NCBI GenBank assembly: GCA_038057125.1
Contig: JBBUDU010000002.1
Location: forward strand, 85,240-149,239
Direction of reading: 5' to 3'
Length of the DNA stretch: 64,000 nucleotides
From: Patescibacteria group bacterium
GTDB lineage: Bacteria > Patescibacteriota > Minisyncoccia > Phycocordibacterales > UBA1550
In this document: piece by piece, positions 16,032 through 28,568 of the stretch
How positions within the stretch are numbered: the stretch's first letter is position 1
How the letters are laid out: every line of letters begins with the position of its first letter
The notes under the pieces: generated by a model
What the model was told of the DNA's origin: nothing
Seen by the model: only the letters and a program-made list of their open reading frames with translations
Database searches by the model: none
Translations under genes and position numbers: made by a program

Positions 16032-17564
16032 ATGGACATTAACATTGCACTCACGCTCGGCGGCGTGATGGCAATTCTGGTCGGTGCGACACTTGGCTAT
16101 CTTTTGCGCTGGTTTATCGCAATCAGCAAACGCGGATCAGTCGAAATTGAAGTAAAACAAGTCTTACTTTCCGCAAAAGAAGAGGCCCAAAAAATTACTG
16201 AAGAAGCCGACCGAAGAGCCGAAGTATACGGGCGCGAACTCCATGAAGAAGAGCGCGAACAATCTGAGCGCTTCAAAAAAACCGAGGAGCGCCTCATCAA
16301 AAAAGAGGGATTCCTCGACAAGCGTCAGGAAGATATTGACAAGGAGACAGCGCATATAAAAGAGAGGGATGATGAAATCAGGCTCATCCGTGAAAAAACC
16401 AACAAAGAGAAAGAGTTTGCGCACAAAGAGCTCGAGCGTATTGCGCGACTGAGTGCTATGGACGCAGTAGAGGAGCTCATCAAGCGCGCCGAGAAGCTTT
16501 ACGAAGAGGATATTTCGGTTCGAATAAAAAAAATTGAAACAGGTGGAGAAGAGAGGCTCGCACAAAAAGCGCGGGACATTCTCGCCACTTCGATTCAACG
16601 CCTTGCTACGTCAACAGCATCAGAAATGATGGCAACATCTGTCTCCATTGCTTCAGACGAAATAAAGGGGAAAATTATTGGTAAAGAAGGCAGAAATATC
16701 AGAGCTTTTGAGCGTGCAGCTGGCGTAGAGGTTATTGTTGACGATACTCCTGGTTCGATTCTCATCTCATCGTTTGACCCTATTCGGCGACAAGTTGCGC
16801 GTGTTGCGCTTGAGGAGCTCATCGCTGATGGGCGCATTCAACCTGCAAGAATCGAGGAAACGGTAGAAAAAGCGCGAGGAGAAATAAACAAAATAACGAA
16901 AGAACGAGGGGAGCAGGCGGCATACGAATGCGGTGTGTTCAACCTTGACCCGCGTATCATTGCAATCCTCGGGCGCCTCCATTTCCGCACGAGTTATGGG
17001 CAAAACGTACTCCAGCATTCGATTGAAATGGCGCATATTTCGGGAATAATCGCCGAGGAGCTTGGAGCAAATGTTGCTGTCGCGAAAGCTGGAGCGCTCC
17101 TTCACGACCTTGGGAAAGCGGTTGATCACGAAGTACAGGGTACCCATGTTGAAATTGGTCGTAGGATCCTGCAAAAGTTTGGCGTAGATACACGCATCAT
17201 TCAAGCAATGCAATCACATCACGAGGAATACCCTTATGAAACAATTGAATCAATTATTGTACAGACCGCTGACTCGATTTCTGGTGGCCGGCCGGGGGCT
17301 CGCCGTGATTCTGCGGAAAATTATATAGACCGCCTCAAGGACCTAGAAGCGATAGCAAAATCCTTCCCTGCCGTCGAAAAAACCTATGCAATTCAAGCCG
17401 GAAGAGAGCTTCGTGTATTTGTGAAGCCTGAAGAAATCACAGACATTGAAGCAAAGAAACTTGCGCGCGACATTGCAATGCGTGTTGAAAAGGAACTTAA
17501 ATATCCGGGTGAAATAAAAGTAGCGGTCATTCGCGAGTCACGGGCGATTGAGTACGCAAGATAG
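16032..17564 (+). CDS. rny: ribonuclease Y
   Basis: 510 aa with an N-terminal TM, coiled coil, KH motif (IGKEGRNIRAFE) and HD domain (LLHDLGK). Confidence 0.92.
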   Translation: MDINIALTLGGVMAILVGATLGYLLRWFIAISKRGSVEIEVKQVLLSAKEEAQKITEEADRRAEVYGRELHEEEREQSERFKKTEERLIKKEGFLDKRQEDIDKETAHIKERDDEIRLIREKTNKEKEFAHKELERIARLSAMDAVEELIKRAEKLYEEDISVRIKKIETGGEERLAQKARDILATSIQRLATSTASEMMATSVSIASDEIKGKIIGKEGRNIRAFERAAGVEVIVDDTPGSILISSFDPIRRQVARVALEELIADGRIQPARIEETVEKARGEINKITKERGEQAAYECGVFNLDPRIIAILGRLHFRTSYGQNVLQHSIEMAHISGIIAEELGANVAVAKAGALLHDLGKAVDHEVQGTHVEIGRRILQKFGVDTRIIQAMQSHHEEYPYETIESIIVQTADSISGGRPGARRDSAENYIDRLKDLEAIAKSFPAVEKTYAIQAGRELRVFVKPEEITDIEAKKLARDIAMRVEKELKYPGEIKVAVIRESRAIEYAR

Positions 17565-17623
17565 AATAAAATTACGAAACAATTTTCGAATCTTGACAAT
17601 ATTCCCAAAAATCCTTGCGCCTA

Positions 17624-17652
17624 TTGCGTAAAAAAACCTGTGGGGGTATACT
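17624..17652 (+). promoter_or_regulatory. candidate promoter of hup (TTGCGT-N17-TATACT, G5 run abutting the -10)
   Basis: TTGCGT at 17624-17629, a 17-nt spacer ending GGGGG, TATACT at 17647-17652. Same architecture as at 43857-43885. Confidence 0.4.
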
Positions 17653-17748
17653 TGTCTGCAAGGGAGCTTGGGTACACCTTTGCGCCCGAGTAACTCACTG
17701 AAGTTTTAGTATTACAAGAATTAAAAGAGGCGTTAATAAAATATCATT

Positions 17749-18021
17749 ATGAACAAAGCAGCTATCGCTGAAATTATTCACGAGAAGATGGGAGGGACCA
17801 AAGTATCTGCAGAGCAGACACTTGACGCAATCCTTGAAGGGATGGTAAGCACCTTGAAGAAAGGTGGAGAAGTGTCAATCGCAGGACTCGGTATCTTTTC
17901 TACAAAGGCTCGCGCAGCCCGCACAGCGCGTAACCCAAAAACTGGTGAGGCTATTCAAGTAAAAGCAACAACAGTTCCAAAGTTTCGTGCCGCAAAGGCG
18001 CTCAAGGACGCAGTGAAGTAA
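17749..18021 (+). CDS. hup: DNA-binding protein HU
   Basis: 90 aa HU/IHF fold sequence (GLGIFSTKARAARTARNPKTGE). Confidence 0.9.
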   Translation: MNKAAIAEIIHEKMGGTKVSAEQTLDAILEGMVSTLKKGGEVSIAGLGIFSTKARAARTARNPKTGEAIQVKATTVPKFRAAKALKDAVK

Positions 18022-18039
18022 AGACTGCTACTCCAAAAG

Positions 18040-18075
18040 AAAACCGAGCCTCCTATGGAGGCTCGGTTTTCTTTT
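18040..18075 (+). terminator. rho-independent terminator after hup
   Basis: AAAACCGAGCCTCC-TAT-GGAGGCTCGGTTTT followed by CTTTT. Confidence 0.8.
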
Positions 18076-18078
18076 GGG

Positions 18079-18235
18079 TGCGGGATGGGCTCTCGGTCAC
18101 GAGTTACTAAGTGTGCTCGTGTGAGTACACACTGCGCGCACTAAGTACTCTCGACCCCGCCTCACTGTCGCAGAGCGACATGTTCCGGCTTTCGATTCTC
18201 CACGCAAGGCGCGCAGGCGTCTTGCTCATCCCGCA
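18079..18235. other. tRNA-end-bounded structured element, Gly locus unit A (157 nt)
   Basis: - Starts TGCGGGATGGG, the same as the 3' end of the tRNA-Gly(UCC) gene in plus coordinates.
- Ends ATCCCGCA, the inverted complement of that start.
- First 81 nt are identical to unit B.
- Contains a long imperfect hairpin and the blocks TCGGTCACGA, TCTCGACCCCG and CTTTCGATT. Confidence 0.6.
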
Positions 18236-18237
18236 CA

Positions 18238-18279
18238 ATGTAAAAATCCCCAGACCGAAACGGTTGGGGATTTTTACAT
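18238..18279. terminator. 15-bp-stem hairpin separating units A and B
   Basis: ATGTAAAAATCCCCA / TGGGGATTTTTACAT, symmetric with A/T runs on both sides. Confidence 0.55.
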
Positions 18280-18281
18280 TG

Positions 18282-18418
18282 TGCGGGATGGGCTCTCGGT
18301 CACGAGTTACTAAGTGTGCTCGTGTGAGTACACACTGCGCGCACTAAGTACTCTCGACCCCGGCTCGCCTCTTCGCTACGCTCAGTATGGCTCCGCCTTT
18401 CGATTCTCCCATCCCGCT
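18282..18418. other. tRNA-end-bounded structured element, Gly locus unit B (137 nt)
   Basis: The 5' GCGGGATGGG pairs with the 3' CCCATCCCGC. The right end TTCGATTCTCCCATCCCGC is an inverted copy of the tRNA-Gly(UCC) T-loop, T-stem and acceptor 3' strand. Confidence 0.6.
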
Positions 18419-18430
18419 ACAAAATGCAAC

Positions 18431-18456
18431 AACGCCGAAGTTTTCACTTCGGCGTT
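18431..18456 (-). terminator. hairpin immediately 3' of tRNA-Gly(UCC)
   Basis: AACGCCGAAGT / ACTTCGGCGTT stem. Confidence 0.5.
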
Positions 18457-18465
18457 GGCATTTTG

Positions 18466-18536
18466 TGCGGGATGGGAGAATCGAACTCCCGCCAAGAGTT
18501 TGGAAAACTCCTATTCTACCATTAAACTAATCCCGC
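18466..18536 (-). tRNA. tRNA-Gly (anticodon UCC)
   Basis: Hand-folded 71 nt: acceptor GCGGGAT/ATCCCGC, D arm GTTT-AATGGTA-GAAT, anticodon arm GGAGT-TTTCCAA-ACTCT, T arm GGGAG-TTCGATT-CTCCC. CCA is not encoded. Confidence 0.9.
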
Positions 18537-18636
18537 GATTAAAACCTCTCAAGACAATAGCAAAAGCACAGATGTTTCGCAAATATGTCCCCAAAACATC
18601 TGTACTACTACATACTACGACTGAAAGCCTGCCACT

Positions 18637-19521
18637 CTACCCAACAATCGATCGCACCTTCGTCACGATCTCGTCAAGCGTGAAGTTTGCCTTTACCATA
18701 AAGTCTTTTGCTCCAAGCGCCATTGCTTTATCGAGGTCTTCTTTCTGACCAAGGTTGCTCAAAATAACAACGGGAACGTCCATAATCTTTGGATCTGCTT
18801 TAATCCGCGCAAGAATTTCAAATCCATCTGTGCCGGGTAAAATAAGGTCACAGAGAATCATATTTGGCTTACGCTCAGACAAAATTGCAAACGCCGCCAC
18901 TGCGTCAATTGCGTTTTGAACATCAAACCCCTCACTCGCAAGCTTGCGCACCAAAAGCTCGCGCAAAAATTTGTCATCCTCAATAACAAGGATAAACTTT
19001 TTTTTGCCACCAGTTGATGGTGTTGTAACATCTGTCACGCCTTGCGACATTTTATAGACTGGGGCCTCTGCCACGGCTTCTGAAACCCCTGAGCTGTTTA
19101 CATTTTGTGTGCGCACACCCCATTCCCCTCTAGGAGCCGCGGCAACTCCTCCGAGTACGCGCTCTACTTTTTCAAGGACTTCGTTTGGGTCAAACACTGC
19201 TTTGATCAAAAATTCTCGCGCGCCAAGCTCTTGTGCTCGCTTTATCTCCACTGGTTGACCGGAATTTGAAATAATAATAACTGGAATATCGCGAAGTGTT
19301 GGATCTGCATGTATCTCTTCCAATACCTCAATACCACCCTTGCGCGGCATAAGGATATCCAAGAGCACGCAATCAGGCCTGACGGCGCGAATCTTTTCTA
19401 TGGCGACAATACCGTCCTCTGCTATGTCCACAACATAACCGCTCTTTTCAAGTTTTTGTGCAAGGACATCACGGAGTACCGCGTCGTCTTCCACAATGAT
19501 AATTCTTTTTTTCTCTTCCAT
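18637..19521 (-). CDS. response regulator with two receiver domains and no output domain
   Basis: Two REC modules (IIIVEDDAVLRD...VLLDILMPRKGG and ILVIEDDKFLRE...ILCDLILPGTDG). Confidence 0.85.
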   Translation of the reverse strand: MEEKKRIIIVEDDAVLRDVLAQKLEKSGYVVDIAEDGIVAIEKIRAVRPDCVLLDILMPRKGGIEVLEEIHADPTLRDIPVIIISNSGQPVEIKRAQELGAREFLIKAVFDPNEVLEKVERVLGGVAAAPRGEWGVRTQNVNSSGVSEAVAEAPVYKMSQGVTDVTTPSTGGKKKFILVIEDDKFLRELLVRKLASEGFDVQNAIDAVAAFAILSERKPNMILCDLILPGTDGFEILARIKADPKIMDVPVVILSNLGQKEDLDKAMALGAKDFMVKANFTLDEIVTKVRSIVG

Positions 19522-19612
19522 GATGATTCTGTGTTATTGAGGGTACTATTATTATAGTATAAAATTGATGTCTACGCTATCAAATTAACCTTCTGTATTA
19601 CTCCTGATCGCA

Positions 19613-21517
19613 TCATATGTTCTCTTTTTCTACCGCTTTTACCAACTCTCTTGGTAAAAGTTTTGCGATGACCGGAACCACAATAGTAAACGTTGTGCCT
19701 CCCCCCTCCACTGAATCAACCCAAATTTGCCCACCGTGTCTCATAATGATACTTTTCACGATAAACAAACCGAGTCCGGAGCCATCTGTTTGCAAGTGAA
19801 TAACGTTTGAGGCACGGAAGAATTTTGAAAACAGTTTCGCTATGTCTGCCTTTGGAATACCGACTCCGGAGTCGCTTACTTTCACTTCTACGAAGTCCCC
19901 TTTCTTTTCAACAGCTATCGTAACTTTCCCACCGGGCAATGTGTACTTCATCGCATTGTCAACGATGTTTTGAAAAGCAATAAGAAGTTTCTCGGGATCG
20001 AATGAAAAGTTATGAATATCTCCTGCGTGATTCACAAACTGTACTTCAACATTGCGCTCCTTTGAAGGGAGCTCTGTGTTTTCAACGAGGGTATTCAAGA
20101 GCTTCATAAAATCATTCTCTTCAAAATTATAACCAAACATTCCATTCTCAATACGCGAAACATTCAAGAGGTCGTTCACCAACTGAATCATTTTTTCGTT
20201 CGTCTCATACCCGCGCTTTAGCATCCCCTTTTGGTCATCATTTATTGCACCCAAATCCCCGTCGAGCAGAAGCTTGAGCACCCATTTTACGCCAGAAAGC
20301 GGCGTGCGGAGCTGATGCGCAGCTATGGAAATAAAATCAGACTTCAGTCTGTCAATCTCGCCCAAGTTTACCACCATCGAGTTGAACACATCTCCAAACT
20401 GCCCAATCTCATCGTTTGAGGTATGTTCTACTTTTTGACTAAGGTCTCCATCCGCAATCTTTCGCGCAACAAATGAATATCGTCGAATAGGCCCCACTAC
20501 TTGTCGTTCAAGGATTATCGAGAGCACAATCACGAGTATAGATGTAAAGACAACGCCGACACCGAGCAACCGGACACGAAATCCGCTGACACGGTTCTCA
20601 TAAGCGCTCTTCAATAAATGAGACTCCGACACGCCGACGATGCGAGAACCTTTTGCATTTTCAATCTTTATTGGTTTCACATACACGACAACCTCGTGTC
20701 CTTCGTGAATGCGTTCGTATTGCATGCTTTCTTTCGCTCCGGTCGCTATGTCGCGACGCGCTTGTATTTGTTCTTGGGTATCATTATCAAATTTTCTTGC
20801 GCCTTGTCCCATGTTTGCGAGAACATTAAGACTCGTATCGAGGACGACAAAATCGTGAAAAAACCCAAATTCGTCAGTTTTATTTATTTTCCCAAGCTGA
20901 GAAGCATCGTCAATAATTTTTTGCAGATACTGTGATCCGTCCTCAATTGCAATGTTTATTGCTCGTGTACTTTGCTCGACACTGGCTGAAGCAAGGTCTA
21001 GTAAACGTCTTGCCTCCAAAACGTCTTGCGAACTCTTAGACCTAGTCTTTACCTCTGTTTCAATAATATTAATAATATTATTATTGCCATCAAAAACTGG
21101 TGCGTAATGTTCAATCCTGTAATAATTTTCGTTTGTATTTGTTTTTGAAACAACCGCCTTGTTTTTAACAACCTCATTAATGGCCGCAAGTTTTGCCGCT
21201 ATGTCTTGCGGTGCGTCGCTTGAACGGGTTGTGGCAACATCAACTCCCTTTGTATCCAAAACTTCTATGTAGTTTACTCCGGAGATACGGCTTGCAAGTG
21301 TGTCTACAATCTCTTGAAGCGATCCCTTCTGTGCCGAAATCTGCGTAAACATACGTTCTACGTCTTTACGAACCAAATCTGTAACAGTACTGGTGTTGTT
21401 GATAACTTCGGTTTTTATATTTTTTGACTCAATTGTATCAATGATCCAAAATCCAAGAGTAAGAATGGTAACGACGACCACAACGAGCACAAGATTTATT
21501 TTTGTACCAAGCTTCAT
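19613..21517 (-). CDS. sensor histidine kinase (TM-sensor-TM-HAMP-HisKA-HATPase)
   Basis: HAMP (IADGDLSQKVEHTSNDEIGQF), H-box SIAAHQLRTPL, ATP-binding DSGVGIP / GSGLGLFIVKSI. Confidence 0.88.
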   Translation of the reverse strand: MKLGTKINLVLVVVVVTILTLGFWIIDTIESKNIKTEVINNTSTVTDLVRKDVERMFTQISAQKGSLQEIVDTLASRISGVNYIEVLDTKGVDVATTRSSDAPQDIAAKLAAINEVVKNKAVVSKTNTNENYYRIEHYAPVFDGNNNIINIIETEVKTRSKSSQDVLEARRLLDLASASVEQSTRAINIAIEDGSQYLQKIIDDASQLGKINKTDEFGFFHDFVVLDTSLNVLANMGQGARKFDNDTQEQIQARRDIATGAKESMQYERIHEGHEVVVYVKPIKIENAKGSRIVGVSESHLLKSAYENRVSGFRVRLLGVGVVFTSILVIVLSIILERQVVGPIRRYSFVARKIADGDLSQKVEHTSNDEIGQFGDVFNSMVVNLGEIDRLKSDFISIAAHQLRTPLSGVKWVLKLLLDGDLGAINDDQKGMLKRGYETNEKMIQLVNDLLNVSRIENGMFGYNFEENDFMKLLNTLVENTELPSKERNVEVQFVNHAGDIHNFSFDPEKLLIAFQNIVDNAMKYTLPGGKVTIAVEKKGDFVEVKVSDSGVGIPKADIAKLFSKFFRASNVIHLQTDGSGLGLFIVKSIIMRHGGQIWVDSVEGGGTTFTIVVPVIAKLLPRELVKAVEKENI

Positions 21518-21576
21518 ATTACTTTACAGTATACACCACTAATGGAGAAAAATGATTGGTGACATGTGGAGAATTG

Positions 21577-21668
21577 TGCCCTCATGAGGAGTCTGCCAAG
21601 CGCTCGCTCGACCCGTTTTGTTAAACGGGTAAACCCGAGCTCACTTTCGACTCCTCGTTCGCGCTACA
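21577..21668. other. degenerate tRNA-end-derived element next to tRNA-Arg(CCG)
   Basis: Starts with a 17-nt copy (TGCCCTCATGAGGAGTC) of the tRNA-Arg(CCG) 3' end. Contains GCGCTCGCTCGACCC, a hairpin ACCCGTTT-TGTT-AAACGGGT, and an inverted T-loop copy TTTCGACTCCTC. There is no closing acceptor complement. Confidence 0.45.
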
Positions 21669-21712
21669 AAAACATACTCCAAAAATGCTTCGCATTTGTT
21701 TCGTTCTTTTTG

Positions 21713-21784
21713 TGCCCTCATGAGGAGTCGAACCTCAATTACAAGCTTCGGAAGCTTGTGTCCTATCCGTTGAACGATAAGGGC
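21713..21784 (-). tRNA. tRNA-Arg (anticodon CCG)
   Basis: Hand-folded 72 nt: acceptor GCCCTTA/TGAGGGC, anticodon arm CAAGC-TTCCGAA-GCTTG, T arm TGAGG-TTCGACT-CCTCA. Confidence 0.88.
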
Positions 21785-21835
21785 TTTTTGGTACTGTGGT
21801 CCGTTGTACCACGAGCGCAGGTTTGGAAAAGTAGA

Positions 21836-22915
21836 CTAATTAATCTCAATGTCGATATGCCGCACCGTGGGTATTTCTTTTTTAATCCGCGCCTCAAGCT
21901 CGTCGATGCGCGTACCGATAACGCGCGGCACACGATCGGTAAACTCCACGCAAAAGCGCACAAACTCCTGATAGTCCTCTTTTGCGATTTCATAATCCTC
22001 TTTTAGCATTACACCATTTGAAACTTCTCGAAAAAGAGCCGAGCCATTTATCTCCACCTCGCACTTTGCTCGATATTTTCCAAGCTCCACGACAGATGAT
22101 TTAAAATCGTACACACGCTCAATCATTGGGTCAGATACGAGCATTTCAATAATACGATCTTTCACTTCTTCAGGAATTGATTTCTCCACTAAAAAACGTT
22201 TATTTTTTAATATCAAAACTACCGCGACCCAAGCCAAAAGCCCGCCGATAACAATAGAACCCATTGCGTCCCAAACAGGGTTGCCGGTAACGTACGAGAG
22301 TCCGACAGAAACAGTGGCGACAAAAATGCCAAATACAGCAACACCATCTTCATACACAACAGCAAGAACCGTCGGGTCGCCATCGCGAAGCGTGTCGCCA
22401 AGCGTTGTCCCGTCCCCTCTCTGGCTCCGCAATTCACGAAATGCAATCAAAAATGTAATAAGCTCAACAATAAACGAAATTGCAAGAATAAAAAATATTA
22501 TCGGTTCAAACACAAGCTCACTTGGACTAAAGAGTGTTGAAACACCGTGGTATATAGTAATACCGGCGCCTACAAAGAAAACTCCGCAGGCTGAAATAAG
22601 CGCCCAAAAGAAACGTTCTAGTCCGTATCCATAAGAAGAGTCCTCGTCTGGAGCACGACGGCTCTTCACAATACCAACCATCAGAAGCGCTTGATTGGCC
22701 GTGTCTGCAAAACTATGCACGGCCTCAGAAAAAAGAGAGCTCGACCCTGAGATGGCAAAACCAATGGTTTTAAGGATCGTAATAACAAAATTACCCAAAA
22801 GTGCCGCAATAACTGAAACAAAGCCGGGCTCACGTCTGTGGATAACTGACGATTTACCAAATTTCATGGCTTGGCCATGAATTATTCCACTATTAAGTTT
22901 TTCTTTTTTCTTCAT
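21836..22915 (-). CDS. cation diffusion facilitator (CDF) family transporter
   Basis: 359 aa with six TM helices, a HSFADTANQ motif in TM2, and a C-terminal cytoplasmic domain. Confidence 0.85.
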   Translation of the reverse strand: MKKKEKLNSGIIHGQAMKFGKSSVIHRREPGFVSVIAALLGNFVITILKTIGFAISGSSSLFSEAVHSFADTANQALLMVGIVKSRRAPDEDSSYGYGLERFFWALISACGVFFVGAGITIYHGVSTLFSPSELVFEPIIFFILAISFIVELITFLIAFRELRSQRGDGTTLGDTLRDGDPTVLAVVYEDGVAVFGIFVATVSVGLSYVTGNPVWDAMGSIVIGGLLAWVAVVLILKNKRFLVEKSIPEEVKDRIIEMLVSDPMIERVYDFKSSVVELGKYRAKCEVEINGSALFREVSNGVMLKEDYEIAKEDYQEFVRFCVEFTDRVPRVIGTRIDELEARIKKEIPTVRHIDIEIN

Positions 22916-22950
22916 ACATCGCTCTTACGAGCTCTTCCGGTTAAAGCCCT

Positions 22951-23123
22951 TGTCGGGGTGCCCTATGTCCAAGACAAGATTCTACTGAATCTGAATCCCC
23001 GCCTGCCACCGCCCAAAGTTACATAAGTAAAATACAACACCGCCATTTATATTCCAACTGTTTGTAGTATTGAAACTAACCCAATTTGCGGTTAGGCTTT
23101 GGCGGGCAGGGAACTCGGCCTAT
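22951..23123 (-). pseudogene. tRNA-Pro 3'-part pseudo-copy interrupted in the T-loop
   Basis: TGTCGGGGTGCC (22951-22962) and GAACTCGGCCTAT (23111-23123) are exact copies of 23259-23270 and 23278-23290. They are separated by 148 nt instead of 7 nt. Confidence 0.55.
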
Positions 23124-23260
23124 TTTGACGAGAGAGGAGCGTGTGGAAGTGTACCCACTTACACAACGTCCGAGCGATGTTAAAATATTGTACCCGTTAT
23201 ATCTAAATTTCTTATGGAAATTTCCACGGAAGCATCCAATGCTTCCGATTAAAAACTGTG

Positions 23261-23331
23261 TCGGGGTGCCGAGAATCGAACTCGGCCTATCTGCTCCCAA
23301 AGCAGACGTACTACCGATATACTACACCCCG
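23261..23331 (-). tRNA. tRNA-Pro (anticodon UGG)
   Basis: Hand-folded 71 nt: acceptor CGGGGTG/CACCCCG, anticodon arm TCTGC-TTTGGGA-GCAGA, T arm CCGAG-TTCGATT-CTCGG. Confidence 0.88.
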
Positions 23332-23344
23332 ACACAATTTTTAA

Positions 23345-23460
23345 TCCCAAAGCAGACGTACTACCGATATATAACTGAATACAATATATTCTGCGCTCGC
23401 TCGGAAATTAAAACTTGCTAGTTTTATTTCGCTCACTCGCTTGAATATACTACACCCCGA
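23345..23460 (-). pseudogene. tRNA-Pro 5'-half pseudo-copy with a 73-nt insertion in the D-loop
   Basis: A 27-nt exact copy (23345-23371 = 23295-23321) and a 16-nt exact copy (23445-23460 = 23317-23332). ATATA is present on both sides of the insert but only once in the intact gene. Confidence 0.6.
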
Positions 23461-23508
23461 TTTAAACTGTAAGTCATATCTTTAGTCTCGCGTGAAACCG
23501 TTACGGAA

Positions 23509-23991
23509 CTATAGCACGATATTATCTAAAAATCTAATGCGCGCTCGTCGATTTTTTGCGTCAATCTCCACCGTAATAGCATCAAAAATCCATTCAGGCT
23601 CCCCTTTTGGGTACTTTTCAAGCAAGTAAACTTGAATTGTCCGTGCCAGTCTCTTCAGTTTATGCTGGTGAATGTTATCTTCTGGTCGATAACTGTCCGT
23701 TACTGAATTAGCAAATTCTGAGTCAGCAGACTTCACGCCTGGGGCGCAGACCCTTGGGCGCAGGGAAACATTCACCTTATTACATAGGTCCGACCTATGT
23801 AAATTTTCACGTGAAACACTTTTTACCTCAATAAAATGGAGGATTTTACCTTTTTTGGCAATAATATCGATTTCCCCACATTTTTTAAGATAATTTTGCC
23901 CAATTACTAAAAACCCCTTATTTTGTAAGTATTTTACGGCAATATCCTCCCCCAAACGCCCTATTTTCTGCTTTTCTGTAGGTTCAGCCAT
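23509..23991 (-). CDS. yraN: YraN-family (UPF0102) endonuclease-like protein with ~35-aa internal extra segment
   Basis: GRLGEDIAVKYL...CGEIDIIAKKGKILHFIEVKS ... FDAITVEID. The track start is a TTG; the ATG at 23991 is preferred. Confidence 0.75.
   Translation of the reverse strand: MAEPTEKQKIGRLGEDIAVKYLQNKGFLVIGQNYLKKCGEIDIIAKKGKILHFIEVKSVSRENLHRSDLCNKVNVSLRPRVCAPGVKSADSEFANSVTDSYRPEDNIHQHKLKRLARTIQVYLLEKYPKGEPEWIFDAITVEIDAKNRRARIRFLDNIVL
23803..23818. promoter_or_regulatory. parS-like site (14/16 to TGTTTCACGTGAAACA) inside yraN
   Basis: ATTTTCACGTGAAACA; its palindromic core encodes VSRE in the yraN frame. Confidence 0.4.
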
Positions 23992-24038
23992 TACTACACA
24001 ATTATACCCAATGTTCAATGATTAACATAAAAAGAGTG

Positions 24039-24054
24039 TATTTCACGTGAAACA
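24039..24054. promoter_or_regulatory. parS-like site (15/16 to consensus)
   Basis: TATTTCACGTGAAACA, intergenic, upstream of yraN. Confidence 0.6.
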
Positions 24055-24359
24055 CCTCGTTTTTAGACTATATTTAGGTCGAAAACAAGCATTTTTCTAA
24101 AAACTCCATATTTATCAAGGGTTTCTTGGGTTTTAGGTGACAATTTTCCAATGTCTTGAATCTTAGTCTACTGGCTTTTTATGTCCTTTATCAACAGTAT
24201 CCACATAGTTATCCACAGTTTTGAGCTTTTTTCCCCATATTTTCCCGCTTCTGACCGTTGACAGGCTGTGTCAGAATAGTGGTTTTTGTGAAAAATGTCC
24301 TTTACAAAAAACTTATTGTACTGGTGCGGCTCTCGATAACGAACAATTGATTTTTTATT

Positions 24360-24433
24360 TGGTGCGGGTACGGAGAATCGAACTCCGATCTCGTCCTTGG
24401 CAAGGACGCGTTCTACCACTAAACCATACCCGC
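24360..24433 (-). tRNA. tRNA-Gly (anticodon GCC), CCA encoded
   Basis: Hand-folded: acceptor GCGGGTA/TACCCGC, anticodon arm CGTCC-TTGCCAA-GGACG, T arm CGGAG-TTCGATT-CTCCG, 3' ACCA. Confidence 0.9.
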
Positions 24434-24477
24434 AAACTTTCTCAACCATTATACATTTTTTTTATCTTTTTGGAAGA

Positions 24478-24618
24478 GCGCCCGGAGGGATCGGTCACGA
24501 ATATTTTTCTTGTCGTCACAAGAAAAATTTCTCGACCCCGACTCGCCCGTTTTTTCTGCTGAAAAAACATGGCTCCGTCTTTCGATTTACTCACGCGAGC
24601 TTTGCTCGCTCGGGCGCA
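24478..24618. other. tRNA-end-bounded structured element, Arg(UCG) locus (141 nt)
   Basis: The 5' GCGCCCG... pairs with ...CGGGCGC at the 3' end; these are direct and inverted copies of the tRNA-Arg(UCG) 3' end. It shares the blocks TCGGTCACGA, TCTCGACCCCG, CTCGCC, ATGGCTCCG and CTTTCGATT with Gly unit B. The hairpins between the blocks differ in sequence. Confidence 0.6.
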
Positions 24619-24620
24619 GA

Positions 24621-24654
24621 AATAATAAAAACCCCATCAGGGGTTTTTATTATT
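24621..24654 (-). terminator. hairpin between tRNA-Arg(UCG) and the element
   Basis: AATAATAAAAACCCC-ATCA-GGGGTTTTTATTATT. Confidence 0.6.
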
Positions 24655-24656
24655 TG

Positions 24657-24729
24657 TGCGCCCGGAGGGAATCGAACCCCCAACCCCTTGGTTCGAAGCC
24701 AAGTACTCTATCCGTTGAGCTACGGGCGC
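24657..24729 (-). tRNA. tRNA-Arg (anticodon UCG)
   Basis: Hand-folded 73 nt: acceptor GCGCCCG/CGGGCGC, anticodon arm CTTGG-CTTCGAA-CCAAG, T arm GGGGG-TTCGATT-CCCTC. Confidence 0.9.
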
Positions 24730-24818
24730 AAAAATTTGACAGGTTTCTCGTGAAACCTACACAGAGAGCATACCGCAAATTGGTAAAAAAGCCAAAAATA
24801 CACTAGACTATAACCTAT

Positions 24819-26309
24819 ATGATAGGCGCTTCAATAAAAACGAATATCTCGTACAAAATCCCTAAAGAAGTTTCACATGTAACCGAAACCTTGCGAAATG
24901 CAGGGTTTGAGGCGTATCTTGTGGGTGGATGCGTGCGCGACATCTTGCAGGAAATCAAGCCAAAAGACTGGGACGCAACAACAAACGCAACACCGGAACA
25001 AATCCAAGCCCTTTTTGAAAATTCTTTTTACGAAAACGATTACGGAACAGTTGGTATAGTAAATGAAACAGATGATGAAACACTTAAGGTTGTTGAAGTA
25101 ACTCCGTACCGAAGCGAAGGCGCATACACTGACAAGCGACGCCCGGATAGCGTTTCGTTTCACGGGAAACTAGACGAGGATCTAAAACGTCGCGATTTCA
25201 CAATTAACGCAATAGCGTATGATGAATCTAAAGGACATCTAACGGACATGTTTGGTGGTATAAAGGACATAAAGGACAAAGTCTTAAGGACAGTAGGGGA
25301 TCCAAGAGAACGCTTCAACGAAGATGCCCTCCGTGTCCTTCGCGCCGTGCGCCTTGCTACCGATCTTGGTTTCACGATTGAGATAGAGACTCAAAATGCA
25401 CTCACTGAAAAAGCTTCAGACCTGAAACATGTCTCTATGGAGCGTATTCGTGATGAATTCACCAAAATGGTAATGACAAAAAATCCAATGGTTGGCATTG
25501 TAATGTGCCAGAAACTTGGCATCCTTAAATATATTGCGCCGGATATCGAACGTGGGATTGGCATTGAGCAAAATGGCGACCATATTTACACCGTATGGGA
25601 ACACAACCTCCGCGCGCTCCAGCACTCGGCAGACCGTGGATGGCCGCTCCATGTACGACTCGGAGCGCTCTTTCATGATGTTTCAAAACCGGAAACACGA
25701 CGCTGGTCTCCCGAAAAAGACGACTGGACCTTTTATGGTCACGACGTAGTTGGCGGACGTGTTGCAAAAAAAGCTCTGGAAAATTTAAAATATCCTAAAA
25801 AAATCGTTGAGGTTGTGTCCGCGCTTGTGCGTTATCATTTGTTTTTCTCTGATATCGAAAAAATTACGCTTTCTGCGGTACGTCGTATTGTAAAAAACGT
25901 CGGACCTGACAATGTTTGGGACTTGATGAAAGTTCGAGCGTGCGACCGTATCGGCATGGGTCGTCCAAAAGAAGCGCCGTATCGTTTGCGTAAATATGAA
26001 TCAATGATTGATGAGGCGATGCGCGCGCCGGTGTCTGTGGGAATGCTCAAAATTGACGGGCAAAAAATAATGGAAGTTACCCATGAAACACCGGGGCCAA
26101 AACTCGGTTTTATCCTCCACGCGCTCCTCGAAGAAGTGCTTGATGACCCGGAGCGCAACACGGAAGTTTTTCTCGTGAAACGAACACTCGAACTCGCAAA
26201 ACTTCCGATTGATGAATTAAAAAAACTGGGGGAGGAAGGTAAGGAGAAAAAAGAAGAGGAAGAGGAAAAAGAGCTCGCTGTGATTCGCAAGCGTCATGGA
26301 GTAAAGTAA
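24819..26309 (+). CDS. cca: CCA-adding enzyme / poly(A) polymerase family nucleotidyltransferase with HD domain
   Basis: LVGGCVRD, RRDFTINA, HD motif FHDVSKP. Lys/Glu-rich C-terminal tail. Confidence 0.88.
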   Translation: MIGASIKTNISYKIPKEVSHVTETLRNAGFEAYLVGGCVRDILQEIKPKDWDATTNATPEQIQALFENSFYENDYGTVGIVNETDDETLKVVEVTPYRSEGAYTDKRRPDSVSFHGKLDEDLKRRDFTINAIAYDESKGHLTDMFGGIKDIKDKVLRTVGDPRERFNEDALRVLRAVRLATDLGFTIEIETQNALTEKASDLKHVSMERIRDEFTKMVMTKNPMVGIVMCQKLGILKYIAPDIERGIGIEQNGDHIYTVWEHNLRALQHSADRGWPLHVRLGALFHDVSKPETRRWSPEKDDWTFYGHDVVGGRVAKKALENLKYPKKIVEVVSALVRYHLFFSDIEKITLSAVRRIVKNVGPDNVWDLMKVRACDRIGMGRPKEAPYRLRKYESMIDEAMRAPVSVGMLKIDGQKIMEVTHETPGPKLGFILHALLEEVLDDPERNTEVFLVKRTLELAKLPIDELKKLGEEGKEKKEEEEEKELAVIRKRHGVK

Positions 26310-27569: not shown

Positions 27570-28505
27570 TTACCTCCCTTTACCATGAAACTTTTTATGC
27601 ACATTACGAAGCTCACTATCGGTGATGTGGGTATAAATTTGCGTTGTGGAAATGCTTGAATGACCGAGCATCATTTGCACCGAGCGAATATCCGCGCCAT
27701 TGAAAAGCAAGTCAGTTGCAAAACTGTGACGCAAAATGTGAGGTGTAACCTTATCCATAATGCCGGCTTTTGCGGCGTAGAATTTTACCATACGTTCTAC
27801 CGAGCGAGGACTGAGACGAAGTGAACCGTCATCGCGACCACGCTTCATTTCACTCACAAAGAGCGCATCATCCATGTCGGTTCTCTTTTTTAAGTATGCG
27901 TTAATTGCTTTCTTTGCTACGTCTGCAATAAACACAACGCGTACTTTTTCACCCTTACCGCGCACAGATATTTCGTCGCGGCTTAGGTCAATGTCACGTC
28001 CGAGCGCGCACAATTCTGAAAGACGAAGCCCTGTGGAAAAGAAAAGTTCGAGGATTGCTTTATCGCGAAGCTCTTTTATATCGTCGCCATTGGGCGCATC
28101 GAGAAGTCGTCTCAAATCCTCTCCAGTCAGAAGGTCAATCGTACGCTCGGCAACTTTTGCGAGTTCAATTTTTTCCGGAGCATAAGACTCAATTCCACGC
28201 TTGCGCAAATACTTCAAAAAACTTCGAATGGCGATGAGATAATAATTTTGTGTTTTCTTTTTGAGTGTTTCATGGCGACCTTCACGAACGCCTGCGTCTT
28301 GGCGGTTAAGCCACAATCTAAAAGAGCGTATGACATCGTCTGTAATATCACTTGGCTTTTTTGCGCCGCTTGCCATAAAAAAGCGAACGAGGTATCGTTC
28401 ATAGTTCTCAATGGTTTTTAAACTCCGCCCGCGCTCGATTTCCAAATATTCTAAATATTGTCGTGCGAGTGTGCCAAGGGGAGAGGATGGAATATTGTGC
28501 GACAT
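27570..28505 (-). CDS. tyrosine recombinase, XerC/XerD-like
   Basis: HILRHSFATDLL, LGHSSISTTQIYTH. The ATG at 28505 is preferred over the GTG at 28523. Confidence 0.85.
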   Translation of the reverse strand: MSHNIPSSPLGTLARQYLEYLEIERGRSLKTIENYERYLVRFFMASGAKKPSDITDDVIRSFRLWLNRQDAGVREGRHETLKKKTQNYYLIAIRSFLKYLRKRGIESYAPEKIELAKVAERTIDLLTGEDLRRLLDAPNGDDIKELRDKAILELFFSTGLRLSELCALGRDIDLSRDEISVRGKGEKVRVVFIADVAKKAINAYLKKRTDMDDALFVSEMKRGRDDGSLRLSPRSVERMVKFYAAKAGIMDKVTPHILRHSFATDLLFNGADIRSVQMMLGHSSISTTQIYTHITDSELRNVHKKFHGKGR

Positions 28506-28568
28506 GTAAATACAGTATACCACCGTAGACTACTAGCAAAAACGTTTCATCTACGCTAGAATCTTCTT

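Follow-up and report, generated by a model that had tools for sequence, protein, structure and literature searches.

Integrative elements of tRNA and tmRNA genes, which depend on phage-type tyrosine integrases and the T-loop sublocation, enter at the 3' end of the gene, leave it intact and produce a direct repeat that extends from the T-loop as far as the 3' end. The elements described here, found behind tRNA genes in a 64-kb window (the whole stretch of DNA analyzed), share these traits. However, they measure only 90-200 nt, contain neither integrase nor cargo, and add an inverted copy of the target as well as a conserved folded core. A single core family also serves at least 19 tRNA types and rplB. 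MITEs and other intergenic repeats (Correia/CREE, RUP, BOX, ERIC, REP/BIME) are likewise small, non-coding, non-autonomous, multi-copy and polymorphic in their presence, with terminal inverted repeats, a position downstream of genes and hairpins formed in transcripts. In the present elements, though, the terminal inverted repeats are copied from the host gene and are different at each locus, the targets are almost exclusively stable-RNA genes, and the core displays RNA-style covariation. To our knowledge these elements have no parent insertion sequence.

Integron attC sites and elements of the CTX-phage type that use XerCD would be expected to give the same order of target, hairpin, inverted copy, payload and target copy. 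They resemble the present elements also in their tandem, cassette-like, structure-rich arrays and strand-specific fold, and a host tyrosine recombinase could act in trans. On the other hand, no attI or dif-like site and no cassette ORFs were identified here, and the hairpin stem copies the local target and not a fixed site. Group IIC introns also insert just past a hairpin or terminator at gene ends without harming the host gene, but the present elements are five to ten times smaller and have no group II domains, reverse transcriptase or matching Rfam family. In tRNA punctuation of the mitochondrial type, plant mitochondrial t-elements and mascRNA-type mimics, an acceptor-stem-like helix beside genes could attract RNase P or RNase Z, as it could here; the mimicry of the present elements is not general, however, since the frames behind rplB and the short frames deviate from it, and it has no compensatory upkeep. 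In retron ncRNAs (msr-msd) the a1/a2 inverted repeats similarly close a short structured part, and a long hairpin whose distal stem varies comes next. Here the closing repeats are host-derived, no reverse transcriptase gene lies beside any copy examined, and Rfam gives no retron match.

tRNA genes and elements of the window

The window contains five tRNA genes, on which ARAGORN and Rfam agree (tRNA-Arg(UCG) scores 70.3 bits in Rfam), and none in the remaining 57 kb. The initial annotation described the region as co-directional, and this was borne out for the five tRNA genes and the four conserved protein modules (Pfam), all on the minus strand:

17749-18021, plus strand, HU gene, one boundary of the region
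18466-18536, minus strand, tRNA-Gly(UCC), host gene of elements 3 and 4
18637-19521, minus strand, tandem-receiver response regulator, one conserved module with the kinase
19613-21517, minus strand, histidine kinase (HAMP-HisKA-HATPase)
21713-21784, minus strand, tRNA-Arg(CCG), host gene of element 2
21836-22915, minus strand, CDF (cation-diffusion-facilitator) transporter
23261-23331, minus strand, tRNA-Pro(UGG), intact
23509-24018, minus strand, YraN/UPF0102 gene
24363-24433, minus strand, tRNA-Gly(GCC), with an encoded CCA, unlike the other four
24657-24729, minus strand, tRNA-Arg(UCG), host gene of element 1
24819-26309, plus strand, CCA-adding enzyme gene, the other boundary
27570-28523, XerC-like gene, 2.8 kb from the region

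An element unit is non-coding, about 90-200 nt long, and begins immediately past the last base of the tRNA. Its first part is a hairpin with an A-tract, a stem and a T-tract, followed by an inverted copy of the final 8-20 nt of the upstream gene (the anti-tail), which behind tRNAs extends from the T-loop as far as the discriminator. Some units have, between the acceptor-like and T-stem-like segments, a further hairpin of 25 nt with a CUGC loop (P2). Next comes the conserved core, made up of hairpin P3, which has a GGA/GA internal loop, and the long hairpin P4, and a direct copy of the same upstream gene end (the tail copy) completes the unit. In the window the following were found, with scores from the covariance model of the core family, R1:

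24617-24656, minus strand, hairpin T1 after tRNA-Arg(UCG): A-tract, CCCC/GGGG stem, T-tract
24477-24617, minus strand, element behind tRNA-Arg(UCG), 45.8 bits, E about 1e-10: acceptor-strand copy 24611-24617, P2 24593-24610, T-loop/T-stem complement 24581-24592, core (P3 and P4) 24494-24580, direct copy of the tRNA 3' end 24477-24493
24315-24343, minus strand, 29-nt element 3'-end remnant TTCGTTATCGAGAGCCGCACCAGTACAAT of the repeat family behind tRNA-Gly(GCC)
22951-23459, minus strand, tRNA-Pro complex: intact tRNA with partial copies on both sides
21574-21712, minus strand, hairpin (21665-21712) and divergent short element behind tRNA-Arg(CCG): anti-tail 21646-21664, core 21594-21645, tRNA 3'-end copy 21574-21593
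18281-18465, minus strand, hairpin T1 (18418-18465) and element E1 behind tRNA-Gly(UCC), 83.2 bits: perfect 19-nt anti-tail 18399-18417, core 18299-18398, tail copy 18281-18298
18078-18281, minus strand, hairpin T2 (18235-18281) and element E2, 79.8 bits: anti-tail 18227-18234, P2 18202-18226, T-part 18191-18201, core 18096-18190, tail copy 18078-18095
18033-18077, strand not assigned, perfect hairpin with 21-bp arms (100% complementary), common to the tRNA/element array and the convergent HU gene

The core motifs are confined to these sites across the whole 64 kb, and R1 finds three copies in the region (Arg-UCG, E1 and E2) and none elsewhere in the window; the Arg(UCG) copy was absent from the R1 seed. 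The tRNA-derived sequence noted earlier behind the tRNAs is real and well beyond chance, as both direct and inverted repeats show. Inverted repeats with arms of 25-32 nt link the tRNA 3' ends to the start of the element that follows. Behind tRNA-Arg(UCG) the tRNA 3' end, hairpin T1 and anti-tail make up such a repeat with 25-nt arms (96% complementary), and the element has a tail copy of 12 nt and a fold of -64.4 kcal/mol (z = -7.0). E1 forms an inverted repeat with tRNA-Gly(UCC), folds with z = -7.2 and is also present in sister strains, while E2 has an inverted repeat with 29-nt arms (97%) and shares with E1 a direct repeat of 86 nt at 99% identity (18078-18163 and 18281-18366). The short element behind tRNA-Arg(CCG) repeats the tRNA 3' end perfectly (20/20 nt, 136 nt downstream of the original) and folds with z = -5.4, and it gives no R1 match at E<=1. 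The hairpin at 18033-18077 is probably a native bidirectional terminator; equivalents are found at empty sites in loci L006, L132, and L147.

Distribution of the family and origin of the frame

The family is widespread in Paceibacteria and lies almost always behind tRNA or tmRNA genes. R1 found 103 matches in related DNA totaling 587 kb, 94 of them linked to a tRNA or tmRNA gene (67 directly behind one, 17 as tandem copies and 10 with a tRNA within 450 nt), and one extra copy lies behind a tmRNA that ARAGORN missed. A pattern search gave a similar picture, with a same-strand tRNA or tmRNA upstream of 110 of 129 matches. At least 120 genome stretches carry the family, nearly all of them named as Patescibacteria-type MAGs, some labeled only 'bacterium' and one Patiriisocius; it was not found in viral contigs. 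The elements have no match in Rfam even at E<=10, and no paper describing them was found in the literature.

The frame of an element is copied from whichever gene lies upstream. In the tail copy the longest match reaches 22 nt and its median is 10 nt, compared with 5 in controls, and the anti-tail follows the T-loop variants of its tRNA. Two copies lie behind rplB, and their frames copy the 3' end of rplB and not a tRNA. Since the same core is framed there by rplB sequence, the likeness to an acceptor stem or tRNA is a by-product. Decay of the direct copy is suggested by the cases of disagreement between tail copy and tRNA: the anti-tail is then complementary to the tRNA alone in 75 cases and to the tail copy alone in three, in a test that found the anti-tail by its match to the tRNA and so has some bias toward the tRNA. 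The direct copy could be either a true target duplication or carried by the element. The first hairpin may be native or element-borne. In the short-anti-tail type, with a frame of only 5-8 bp, it is clearly element-borne, but one empty site carries a hairpin similar to it.

The core itself has a conserved fold that forms in the single strand of tRNA sense. In the alignment 97.4% of cells are paired, against 84.9% in shuffles and 17-42% when the pairing is slid. Double-sided changes are seen at 16 of 16 pairs, and covariation is found also at pairs that the alignment parsing does not impose. A G.U pair is retained in 96 of 105 sequences and is strand-specific. For two R1 copies that were folded the sense strand is better than the antisense by 8-10 kcal/mol, and for the short Arg(CCG) copy by 3 kcal/mol. 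The internal loops are conserved in sequence and tandem-GA hairpin tips recur. Such a core could serve a mobilizing enzyme as recognition structure, or it could act as an RNA in its own right.

Mobility of the elements

With a probability of roughly 0.55, we regard these as small, non-coding and non-autonomous mobile elements situated directly 3' of tRNA genes in a vertically inherited region. Their occupancy of tRNA slots is patchy among relatives, and empty sites exist: loci L133 and L154 have the identical tRNA-Arg(CCG) allele without an element, while the Gly(GCC) slot holds full copies (R1 matches) in L005, L134, and L148, and only the remnant in the window. A nearly 100% identical unit of about 200 nt lies behind tRNA-Gly(UCC) and tRNA-Gly(GCC) of different genomes, the identity beginning exactly at the tRNA 3' end and the tail copies being locus-specific. 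A core and its nearest relative have the same tRNA anticodon in only 7 of 79 cases; a Tyr and a Gly core are 87% identical in the model alignment, each with its local frame. Chimeras and mosaics are seen in L021, L141, and in E1/E2 of the window. Strains with 99.1% identity are distinguished at the Gly-UCC slot by precisely one unit of 203 nt (E2), for which a deletion between the 86-nt repeats is as good a reading as a gain. By these comparisons, units are gained, lost and shifted between tRNA slots and genomes, and are reshuffled by recombination. Similarity between copies is 0.56 within one genome and 0.53 between genomes and there is thus no sign of a recent burst, within-genome copies being no more alike than the others.

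Recombination would insert the units at the 3' end of stable-RNA genes that are highly expressed, with the recombining enzyme supplied in trans. The substrate may be a folded single-stranded circle whose stem recombines with the matching duplex, as for CTX phage and XerCD or integron attC; this is proposed because it yields the order gene end, hairpin, inverted copy, core and direct copy. Hairpin-templated correction might then keep the inverted copy matched to the host gene, the direct copy would be left to decay, and unequal recombination between direct copies would produce tandem arrays. No mobilizing enzyme was identified, the sole recombinase gene nearby being the conserved XerC-like gene, which has no specific link to the elements, and no circular or excised form was seen. 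Neither integrase nor cargo lies between the repeats of any pair examined, and no full-length version in which core and frame enclose an integrase gene with cargo was seen in 155 loci.

It is conceivable, but rather unlikely, that the elements are functional small-RNA genes read through from the strong tRNA promoter and mobile only secondarily. Maturation would then rely on RNase P, RNase Z and the CCA-adding enzyme, since the acceptor and T stems of the neighboring tRNA recur in the closing stem. The strong covariation, the strand-specific G.U pair, and the conserved loops and tips of the core would all suit this, as would the adjacent gene for the CCA-adding enzyme, the lack of a recent burst, and the optional P2, which occupies exactly the place from which the D and anticodon arms emerge in a tRNA. 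The Arg-UCG slot is filled in 5/5 of the genomes first compared, and constant filling of such slots would suit a retained function as well. However, the closing helix shows no compensatory maintenance (the 75 against three cases above), the rplB copies close with rplB sequence and not with a tRNA-like stem, and the short-anti-tail type has a frame of no more than 5-8 bp. Further, a hairpin with a T-run separates tRNA and element, no promoter-like box precedes the elements, and the same slot is empty in many relatives and differs between strains.

Gene order in the surrounding region

More than 30 related Paceibacteria loci (L005-L008 and 27 metagenome loci, with regulator identity down to 56-59%) agree in their genes, in the five tRNA slots and in having XerC as a neighbor. 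The conserved order is RNase Y, HU, regulator, kinase, CDF, YraN, CCA enzyme, Exo/endo-phosphatase, XerC and S15. The initial annotation had proposed a synteny comparison for variably present modules; the gene order proved constant, and it is the elements that are absent from some relatives. Its hotspot at tRNA 3' ends thus holds for insertion of 90-200-nt elements and fails for the protein modules. By this comparison the 6.7-kb region is an old, vertically inherited housekeeping stretch of ordinary gene order, interspersed with five tRNA genes.

Another proposal, that the tRNAs and tRNA-like elements are RNase P/Z cleavage points which separate protein modules in long precursors, is improbable. 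The region is co-directional throughout, the long-anti-tail elements have acceptor-like stems, and only short gaps without an obvious promoter separate CDF from tRNA-Arg(CCG) (52 nt) and the regulator from tRNA-Gly(UCC) (100 nt); co-transcription of a tRNA with a neighboring gene is, however, ordinary in bacteria and needs no special element. Against it, -10-like boxes stand ahead of tRNA-Gly(GCC) (an extended one, TGTATAAT), YraN, the kinase and the regulator, and the tRNAs are trailed by hairpins with T-runs. Relatives keep the genes and tRNAs without the elements, whose tRNA likeness moreover comes with copying of the upstream gene end and is not maintained by compensatory changes.

It is more doubtful still that the elements are decayed attL/attR scars of integrase islands or prophages that once occupied the tRNA T-loop region and were later deleted. 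A known integrase sublocation in tRNA and tmRNA genes, from T-loop to 3' end, is indeed what the direct repeat covers, and tmRNA genes are targeted too. Scars in more than 100 genomes and at 19 tRNA types would not, however, have in common a conserved, covarying core of about 100 nt, an inverted target copy is not expected in them, and the repeat pairs are empty of integrase and cargo. It is hardly credible that a site-specific recombinase, for instance the XerC-like protein, took up YraN, CDF and the two-component pair at tRNA 3' ends, in spite of the direct repeats of these ends, a tyrosine recombinase gene where the initial annotation had placed it, and extra genes in a few relatives (EamA and PAS/FAD genes in L008, small ORFs in L005), because the four modules and five slots keep their order and orientation in relatives, the direct repeats flank only the small elements and never protein genes, and XerC, which is no island marker, adjoins the Exo/endo-phosphatase and S15 genes in every relative.

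The fragments reported around tRNA-Pro are confirmed: its 5' part is repeated upstream and its 3' part downstream, and small inserts break up both copies. The upstream copy comprises positions 1-15 (23445-23459) and 12-37 (23345-23370) with about 70 nt inserted between them; the downstream copy, positions 44-56 (23111-23123) and 62-73 (22951-22962), is divided by an insert (22997-23110) that has terminal inverted repeats. The leader of the intact gene (23332-23344) pairs with its trailer (23247-23260). The probable start of YraN is the ATG at 23991, and alignment with four orthologues reveals an in-frame insert of 19 aa at 23707-23763.

Gene order of the tRNA cluster

Five tRNA genes, on which ARAGORN and Rfam agree, are found within 18.4-24.8 kb, all on the minus strand, and neither finds a tRNA gene in the remainder of the 64-kb window. 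The protein modules that the initial annotation placed among them were all recovered by Pfam, and its "elements", non-coding units of 90-200 nt lying 3' of the tRNA genes, are real repeats beyond chance, as located by a repeat finder.

17749-18021, plus strand: HU, bordering gene (Pfam)
18078-18281, minus strand: second element behind tRNA-Gly(UCC), a 203-nt unit
18281-18465, minus strand: first element behind tRNA-Gly(UCC)
18.4-24.8 kb, minus strand: tRNA-Gly(UCC), tRNA-Arg(CCG), tRNA-Pro(UGG), tRNA-Gly(GCC) and tRNA-Arg(UCG) (ARAGORN, Rfam)
Protein modules: YraN/UPF0102; CDF transporter; HAMP-HisKA-HATPase kinase; regulator with two receiver domains (Pfam)
24819-26309, plus strand: CCA-adding enzyme with HD domain, bordering gene (Pfam)
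27570-28523: XerC-like gene (Pfam)

According to the repeat finder the two Gly-UCC elements share an 86-nt repeat of 99% identity, the 3' end of tRNA-Arg(CCG) has a perfect 20-nt copy 136 nt downstream, and inverted repeats with arms of 25-32 nt link each tRNA 3' end with the beginning of the next element. The gene of the CCA-adding enzyme is divergent from the tRNA cluster. CCA is encoded in tRNA-Gly(GCC) only; it is absent from the other four tRNAs and from every tail copy, as the direct copy of the upstream gene end within an element is called here.

The window lies on a contig of 306 kb that was obtained from the 0.1-µm fraction of Hainich groundwater, and homologues of its CCA enzyme bear the names Paceibacterota, Yonathbacteria and Nomurabacteria. 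Four relatives with CCA-enzyme identities of 79-88% (L005-L008; L numbers denote loci of relatives or metagenomes fetched for comparison) share the order RNase Y, HU, regulator, kinase, CDF, YraN, CCA enzyme, Exo/endo-phosphatase, XerC, S15 and NYN, and their five tRNAs are identical in kind and slot to those of the window. A further 27 loci, of 56-83% identity, came from scanning metagenomes with the regulator protein and show this picture unchanged except for a few local rearrangements. It had been suggested that the protein modules were cargo captured at tRNA 3' ends. However, YraN, CDF and the kinase-regulator pair occur in the same order in L005-L008 and the metagenome loci, and no variability of the modules between the conserved tRNAs was found. 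The modules are therefore ancestral rather than captured, and XerC, which lies outside the repeats and is conserved in every relative, is a conserved neighbour. For the capture idea this is the refuting result that the initial annotation itself had set out. Neither an integrase gene nor cargo is present between the direct repeats, which enclose only 90-200 nt of non-coding DNA.

The tRNA genes themselves vary at some slots. The tRNA-Arg(CCG) of the window (21713-21784) and that of L007 (6831-6903) have an identical 41-nt interior of D-arm and anticodon-arm, but their acceptor stems and T arms differ at most positions. At the Arg-UCG slot two very different types of tRNA-Arg(UCG) are found among relatives, one with long-anti-tail elements and the other with short-anti-tail elements (see below for the anti-tail).

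Anatomy of the elements and the core family

Each unit starts directly 3' of the tRNA and has five parts, read here on the minus strand:

Part 1: hairpin with A-tract and T-tract flanks
Part 2: anti-tail, reverse-complementary to the tRNA stretch that runs from position 54 in the T-loop to the discriminator
Part 3: junction, AAUCGAA-AG
Part 4: core of about 100 nt with two hairpins, P3 and P4
Part 5: tail copy, a direct repeat of the tRNA stretch that begins at about position 56 and ends at the discriminator

The anti-tail of two window copies is split by P2, a 25-nt hairpin placed exactly between its acceptor-like and T-stem-like parts. P3 is a G-R-C/G-Y-C helix around a GGA/GA internal loop, and P4 has a distal stem that varies freely and a conserved base, in which GGUCGNGAGUACUUAG pairs with CUUAGUAACUCGUGACC; a G.U, a U.U and a bulged A are part of this pairing. 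In the tRNA sense the window copies have fold z-scores of -7.0, -7.2 and -5.4. The sense fold beats the antisense fold by 8-10 kcal/mol in two copies matched by R1, a covariance model of the core, and by 3 kcal/mol in the short Arg-CCG copy, which has the same frame of anti-tail and tail copy as the others and a shorter, divergent core. The elements have no match in Rfam 15, where only the five tRNAs reach the gathering score, and nothing meaningful over them appears at E<=10 in 17500-25000.

A hairpin with a C-CUGC-G loop recurs in L007, L008, L036, L048, L050, L062, L076, L152 and as P2 of the window (24593-24610 and 18202-18226); it is in some copies the first hairpin after the tRNA and in others lies inside the anti-tail. 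The first hairpin of other copies often has a UGCGAAAGCA apex, and the two hairpin types look like interchangeable modules.

The longest match between a tail copy and its own tRNA has a median of 10 nt and reaches 22 nt, against 5 nt in mismatched controls. The direct copies are 12-20 nt long in the window and about 5 to 22 nt across the family, the inverted repeats formed by anti-tail and tail are 5-20 nt, and the anti-tail follows T-loop variants, e.g., TTCGAGT, TTCAATT, and TTCAAAT. In two genomes the core is found behind rplB, the gene of ribosomal protein L2 (Pfam). For these the inverted copy complements the end of rplB, both its last codons and its stop codon, and in one of the two cases a direct copy of that end is also present. 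The likeness to tRNA therefore arises secondarily, from the copying of any gene end that happens to lie upstream. The mimic of acceptor stem and T-stem is not constant, as it is lacking in the rplB-framed and short-frame copies. When drift has made the tail copy differ from the tRNA, the anti-tail pairs with the tRNA alone 75 times and with the tail copy alone 3 times, by a method leaning somewhat toward the tRNA. The closing helix of the element is therefore not kept by compensation; what is kept intact is a long inverted repeat with the host gene. A retroviral-style primer-binding site was rejected, as the inverted copy fits the genomic trailer without the added CCA and mature tRNA is therefore not the template. 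A tmRNA-like or Y-RNA-like mimic was dropped in view of the rplB cases.

The core pattern occurs in at least 120 stretches among species-representative genomes and was not found in the viral collection. Nearly all of the stretches listed bear the names of Patescibacteria-type MAGs, some are named "bacterium" only, and one has a Flavobacteriaceae name. A same-strand tRNA or tmRNA, of 19 tRNA types, lies just upstream in 110 of the 129 matches listed. R1, which was built from a seed of 97 cores, finds exactly three copies in the window, two behind Gly-UCC and one behind Arg-UCG, and nothing elsewhere in its 64 kb; the Arg-UCG copy is outside the seed yet is matched with an E of about 1e-10. The 587 kb of related loci contain 103 non-overlapping copies, 67 directly behind a tRNA or tmRNA, 17 in tandem behind another copy, and 10 with a tRNA within 450 nt. 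One seeming orphan sits behind a tmRNA overlooked by ARAGORN.

The core helices are backed by compensatory changes and are strand-specific, as in a structured RNA or a single-stranded DNA element. They are paired in 97.4% of cells, compared to 84.9% in shuffles and 17-42% with partners slid, and the observed values were matched in 0/500 shuffles. Double-sided changes are found in 16 of 16 pairs and 96 of 105 sequences retain the G.U, counts that are somewhat inflated by fitting the alignment to the model; pairs outside those imposed by parsing also covary.

The same frame also encloses a second core family, which is about 150 nt long and unrelated to the first (...GGGGGTCGGGGAA...GAAACCGTGGGTTTC...GAGATAGCGAAGCGTC). 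This family is found at the Gly-UCC slot of L129-L131, L141 (second copy), L148 (first copy) and L153, and at the Arg-CCG slot of L007/L143; its anti-tail ends in AATCGAAC, and the tail copy then starts at the 3' strand of the T-stem. Five element copies are found in L020 (JBLHQB010000003.1), labelled Patiriisocius sp., a Flavobacteriaceae genus; L020 is probably a mis-binned Patescibacteria contig. A Paceibacteria locus fetched for its element, L109, also contains a LOOT RNA (RF03000, 53.1 bits) at 850-971 on the plus strand.

Mobility and possible mechanism

The elements are mobile, as both filled and empty sites are found in close relatives and near-identical copies occupy non-orthologous sites. 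Among relatives the five slots are patchily filled. Some have at the Gly-UCC slot nothing but the tRNA, a bidirectional terminator and HU, while others have one or two elements, including the second core family, and the tRNA-Arg(CCG) allele of the window occurs without any element in L133/L154. L007 and L152 have, behind tRNA-Gly(UCC), a unit of ~200 nt that is nearly 100% identical to one behind the tRNA-Gly(GCC) of L005. The identity begins exactly past the last base of the tRNA; the tRNA bodies differ, and at the far end each locus has its own tail copy. In the model alignment a core linked to Tyr and another linked to Gly share 87% identity, and each frame fits its own tRNA. The nearest relative of a core has the same tRNA anticodon in 7 of 79 cases, where ~4 are expected by chance. 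Ancient slot-specific co-evolution was rejected because the nearest cores lie at different tRNAs. Copies from one genome resemble each other no more closely than copies from different genomes do, which counts against a recent burst and also against within-genome homogenisation.

Only the first Gly-UCC element is present in three contigs whose identity to the window is 99.1% over ~5 kb, while the window has in addition the 203-nt unit. Unequal recombination with an L008-like allele could have added this unit, or it could have been lost elsewhere between the 86-nt repeats. An assembly artefact was dismissed for the tandem pair, since its junction has only 14 nt in common with the tRNA context, which would be too little for an assembler to join without reads. 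A search for further strain variants through the exact YraN protein returned the same contig only. Frequent recombination among copies is pointed to by mosaics: L021 combines a tmRNA anti-tail with a tRNA-Gly tail, and L141 has two different cores, around which gene end, hairpin and anti-tail occur in duplicate. Arrays of elements are found in the window, L141, L148 and L057. Independent assemblies of the same population (L159 and L160, at contig ends, and L002) stop inside the repeated element of the Gly-UCC slot.

We hypothesise that insertion takes place by folded-strand recombination. The stem of a folded single-stranded circle would recombine with a matching duplex and leave gene end, hairpin, inverted copy, core, and gene-end copy. 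The order target, hairpin, inverted copy, payload and target copy fits the anatomy of all window copies. Recombination of a folded strand in this way is known from CTX phage, with XerCD, and from integron cassettes, with attC. The inverted copy would be kept perfect by hairpin-templated (quasipalindrome) correction, which is a known mutational process. A transposase making a long staggered cut would be an alternative route. No enzyme, circle or excision product was observed. The core may be the recognition structure of a mobilising enzyme, or equally an RNA with its own activity. It may instead be a functional small RNA.

The most far-reaching reading, to which we give about three chances in ten, is that the elements represent a hitherto unrecognised class of mobile element: a geneless folded core of ~100 nt would integrate exactly at the 3' ends of highly expressed stable-RNA genes, in the form of a folded single strand, by way of an RNA intermediate, or by an activity of the core, and would rewrite its terminal repeats from each target. 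If so, a single lineage of cores could spread to all tRNA genes, the tmRNA gene and even rplB, leaving them undamaged. The core might then be a new ribozyme, or the fold by which a putative mobilising enzyme of these ultra-small bacteria recognises it.

The tRNAs and the elements had also been proposed to punctuate long transcripts for RNase P/Z processing. Consensus scans and inspection gave -10-like boxes before tRNA-Gly(GCC) (TGTATAAT), the kinase (TGTATACT) and the regulator, a TATAAT ahead of the YraN ATG at 23991, and hairpins with T-runs after the tRNAs, all of them pattern matches only. Taken together, such putative promoters and terminators, the rplB-framed copies and the patchy occurrence of the elements speak against a dedicated role in punctuation. 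A cis-regulatory leader does not fit, as downstream neighbours vary and may be convergent (HU). Classical Campbell integration with an element-borne att was rejected because tail copies left of the shared overlap are locus-specific where the element is identical. A guide RNA of IS200/IS605-type or TnpB would hit the intact upstream tRNA too, and such a gene is absent nearby. Known ribozymes and RNA families were dismissed for lack of an Rfam match and, by eye, a junction unlike hammerhead, twister and HDV.

Each of the nearest known systems shares features with the elements yet fails at least one defining feature. The tRNA/tmRNA-targeting integrative elements also have a direct repeat of the tRNA 3' part, but their integrase and cargo are absent here. 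MITEs are likewise small, non-coding and multi-copy with terminal inverted repeats; however, these are constant and owned by the element, and the target duplication is short and of fixed length, while here the repeats follow the local tRNA or rplB and the direct copy varies in length. The attC and CTX-phage-XerCD systems are alike in product order and arrays; a dedicated or host tyrosine recombinase acting on the folded strand, with a circular single-stranded intermediate, is putative here. Class C group II introns are six-domain ribozymes that may encode a reverse transcriptase, in contrast to a two-hairpin core of ~100 nt without Rfam match. Retrons have an adjacent reverse transcriptase gene, whereas the flanks here are HU, regulator, kinase, CDF, YraN and CCA enzyme, as in relatives. 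In t-elements, tRNA-like processing signals, the mimic is constant, while here it varies and the closing helix lacks compensatory upkeep. The literature search found no description of the element family, and terminal repeats copied from a host gene in both orientations were not found in Rfam or the searched literature. We class the family among small non-autonomous mobile elements that target tRNA 3' ends; their mechanism has a real chance of being new in kind.

Paceibacteria and other candidate-phyla-radiation bacteria have tiny genomes thought to be poor in mobile DNA. Here one structured family holds a large share of the sampled tRNA/tmRNA 3' flanks in more than 100 species-level genomes, and if it moves by hairpin-mediated recombination or is ribozyme-driven, this would be a new route for a minimal parasite to retarget itself. 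In practice, the elements break metagenome assemblies at tRNA loci (L159, L160), their tRNA-like fragments can mislead annotation, and they are usable as strain-level markers.

The tRNA-Pro nest and inserts near yraN

At 22951-23459 an intact tRNA-Pro(UGG) is nested between copies of tRNA-Pro positions 1-~38 and ~41-73, an arrangement also found in L007, L008, L129, L133, L134, L138, L139, L145 and L153. The anticodon loop of the upstream copy is GUGGGGU, Pro(GGG)-like, in most relatives. Leader and trailer pair over ~13 bp, and the outer anticodon stem covaries with the inner (UCUGC/UUAGA vs. CUUGC/UUAAG in L145). The nest is either a fossil of integration in an anticodon loop or an outer tRNA with a whole tRNA in its "intron", and is odd enough to be worth a separate study.

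An insert of ~114 nt (22997-23110) with terminal inverted repeats CCTGCCCGCCAAAG ... CTTTGGGCGGTGGCAGG lies in the T-loop of the downstream tRNA-Pro 3' copy, right behind GAGTTC, and L138 has a similar insert in the same place (~1780-1900). The YraN of the window contains an in-frame insert of 19 amino acids (23707-23763, LRPRVCAPGVKSADSEFAN) that is absent from four orthologues. Exact copies of a 16-mer from it, GAATTTGCTAATTCAG, occur in 11 further related loci, often adjoining elements or lying in the gap from yraN to tRNA-Pro, and the insert looks like a small repeat placed in coding sequence with the frame unbroken.
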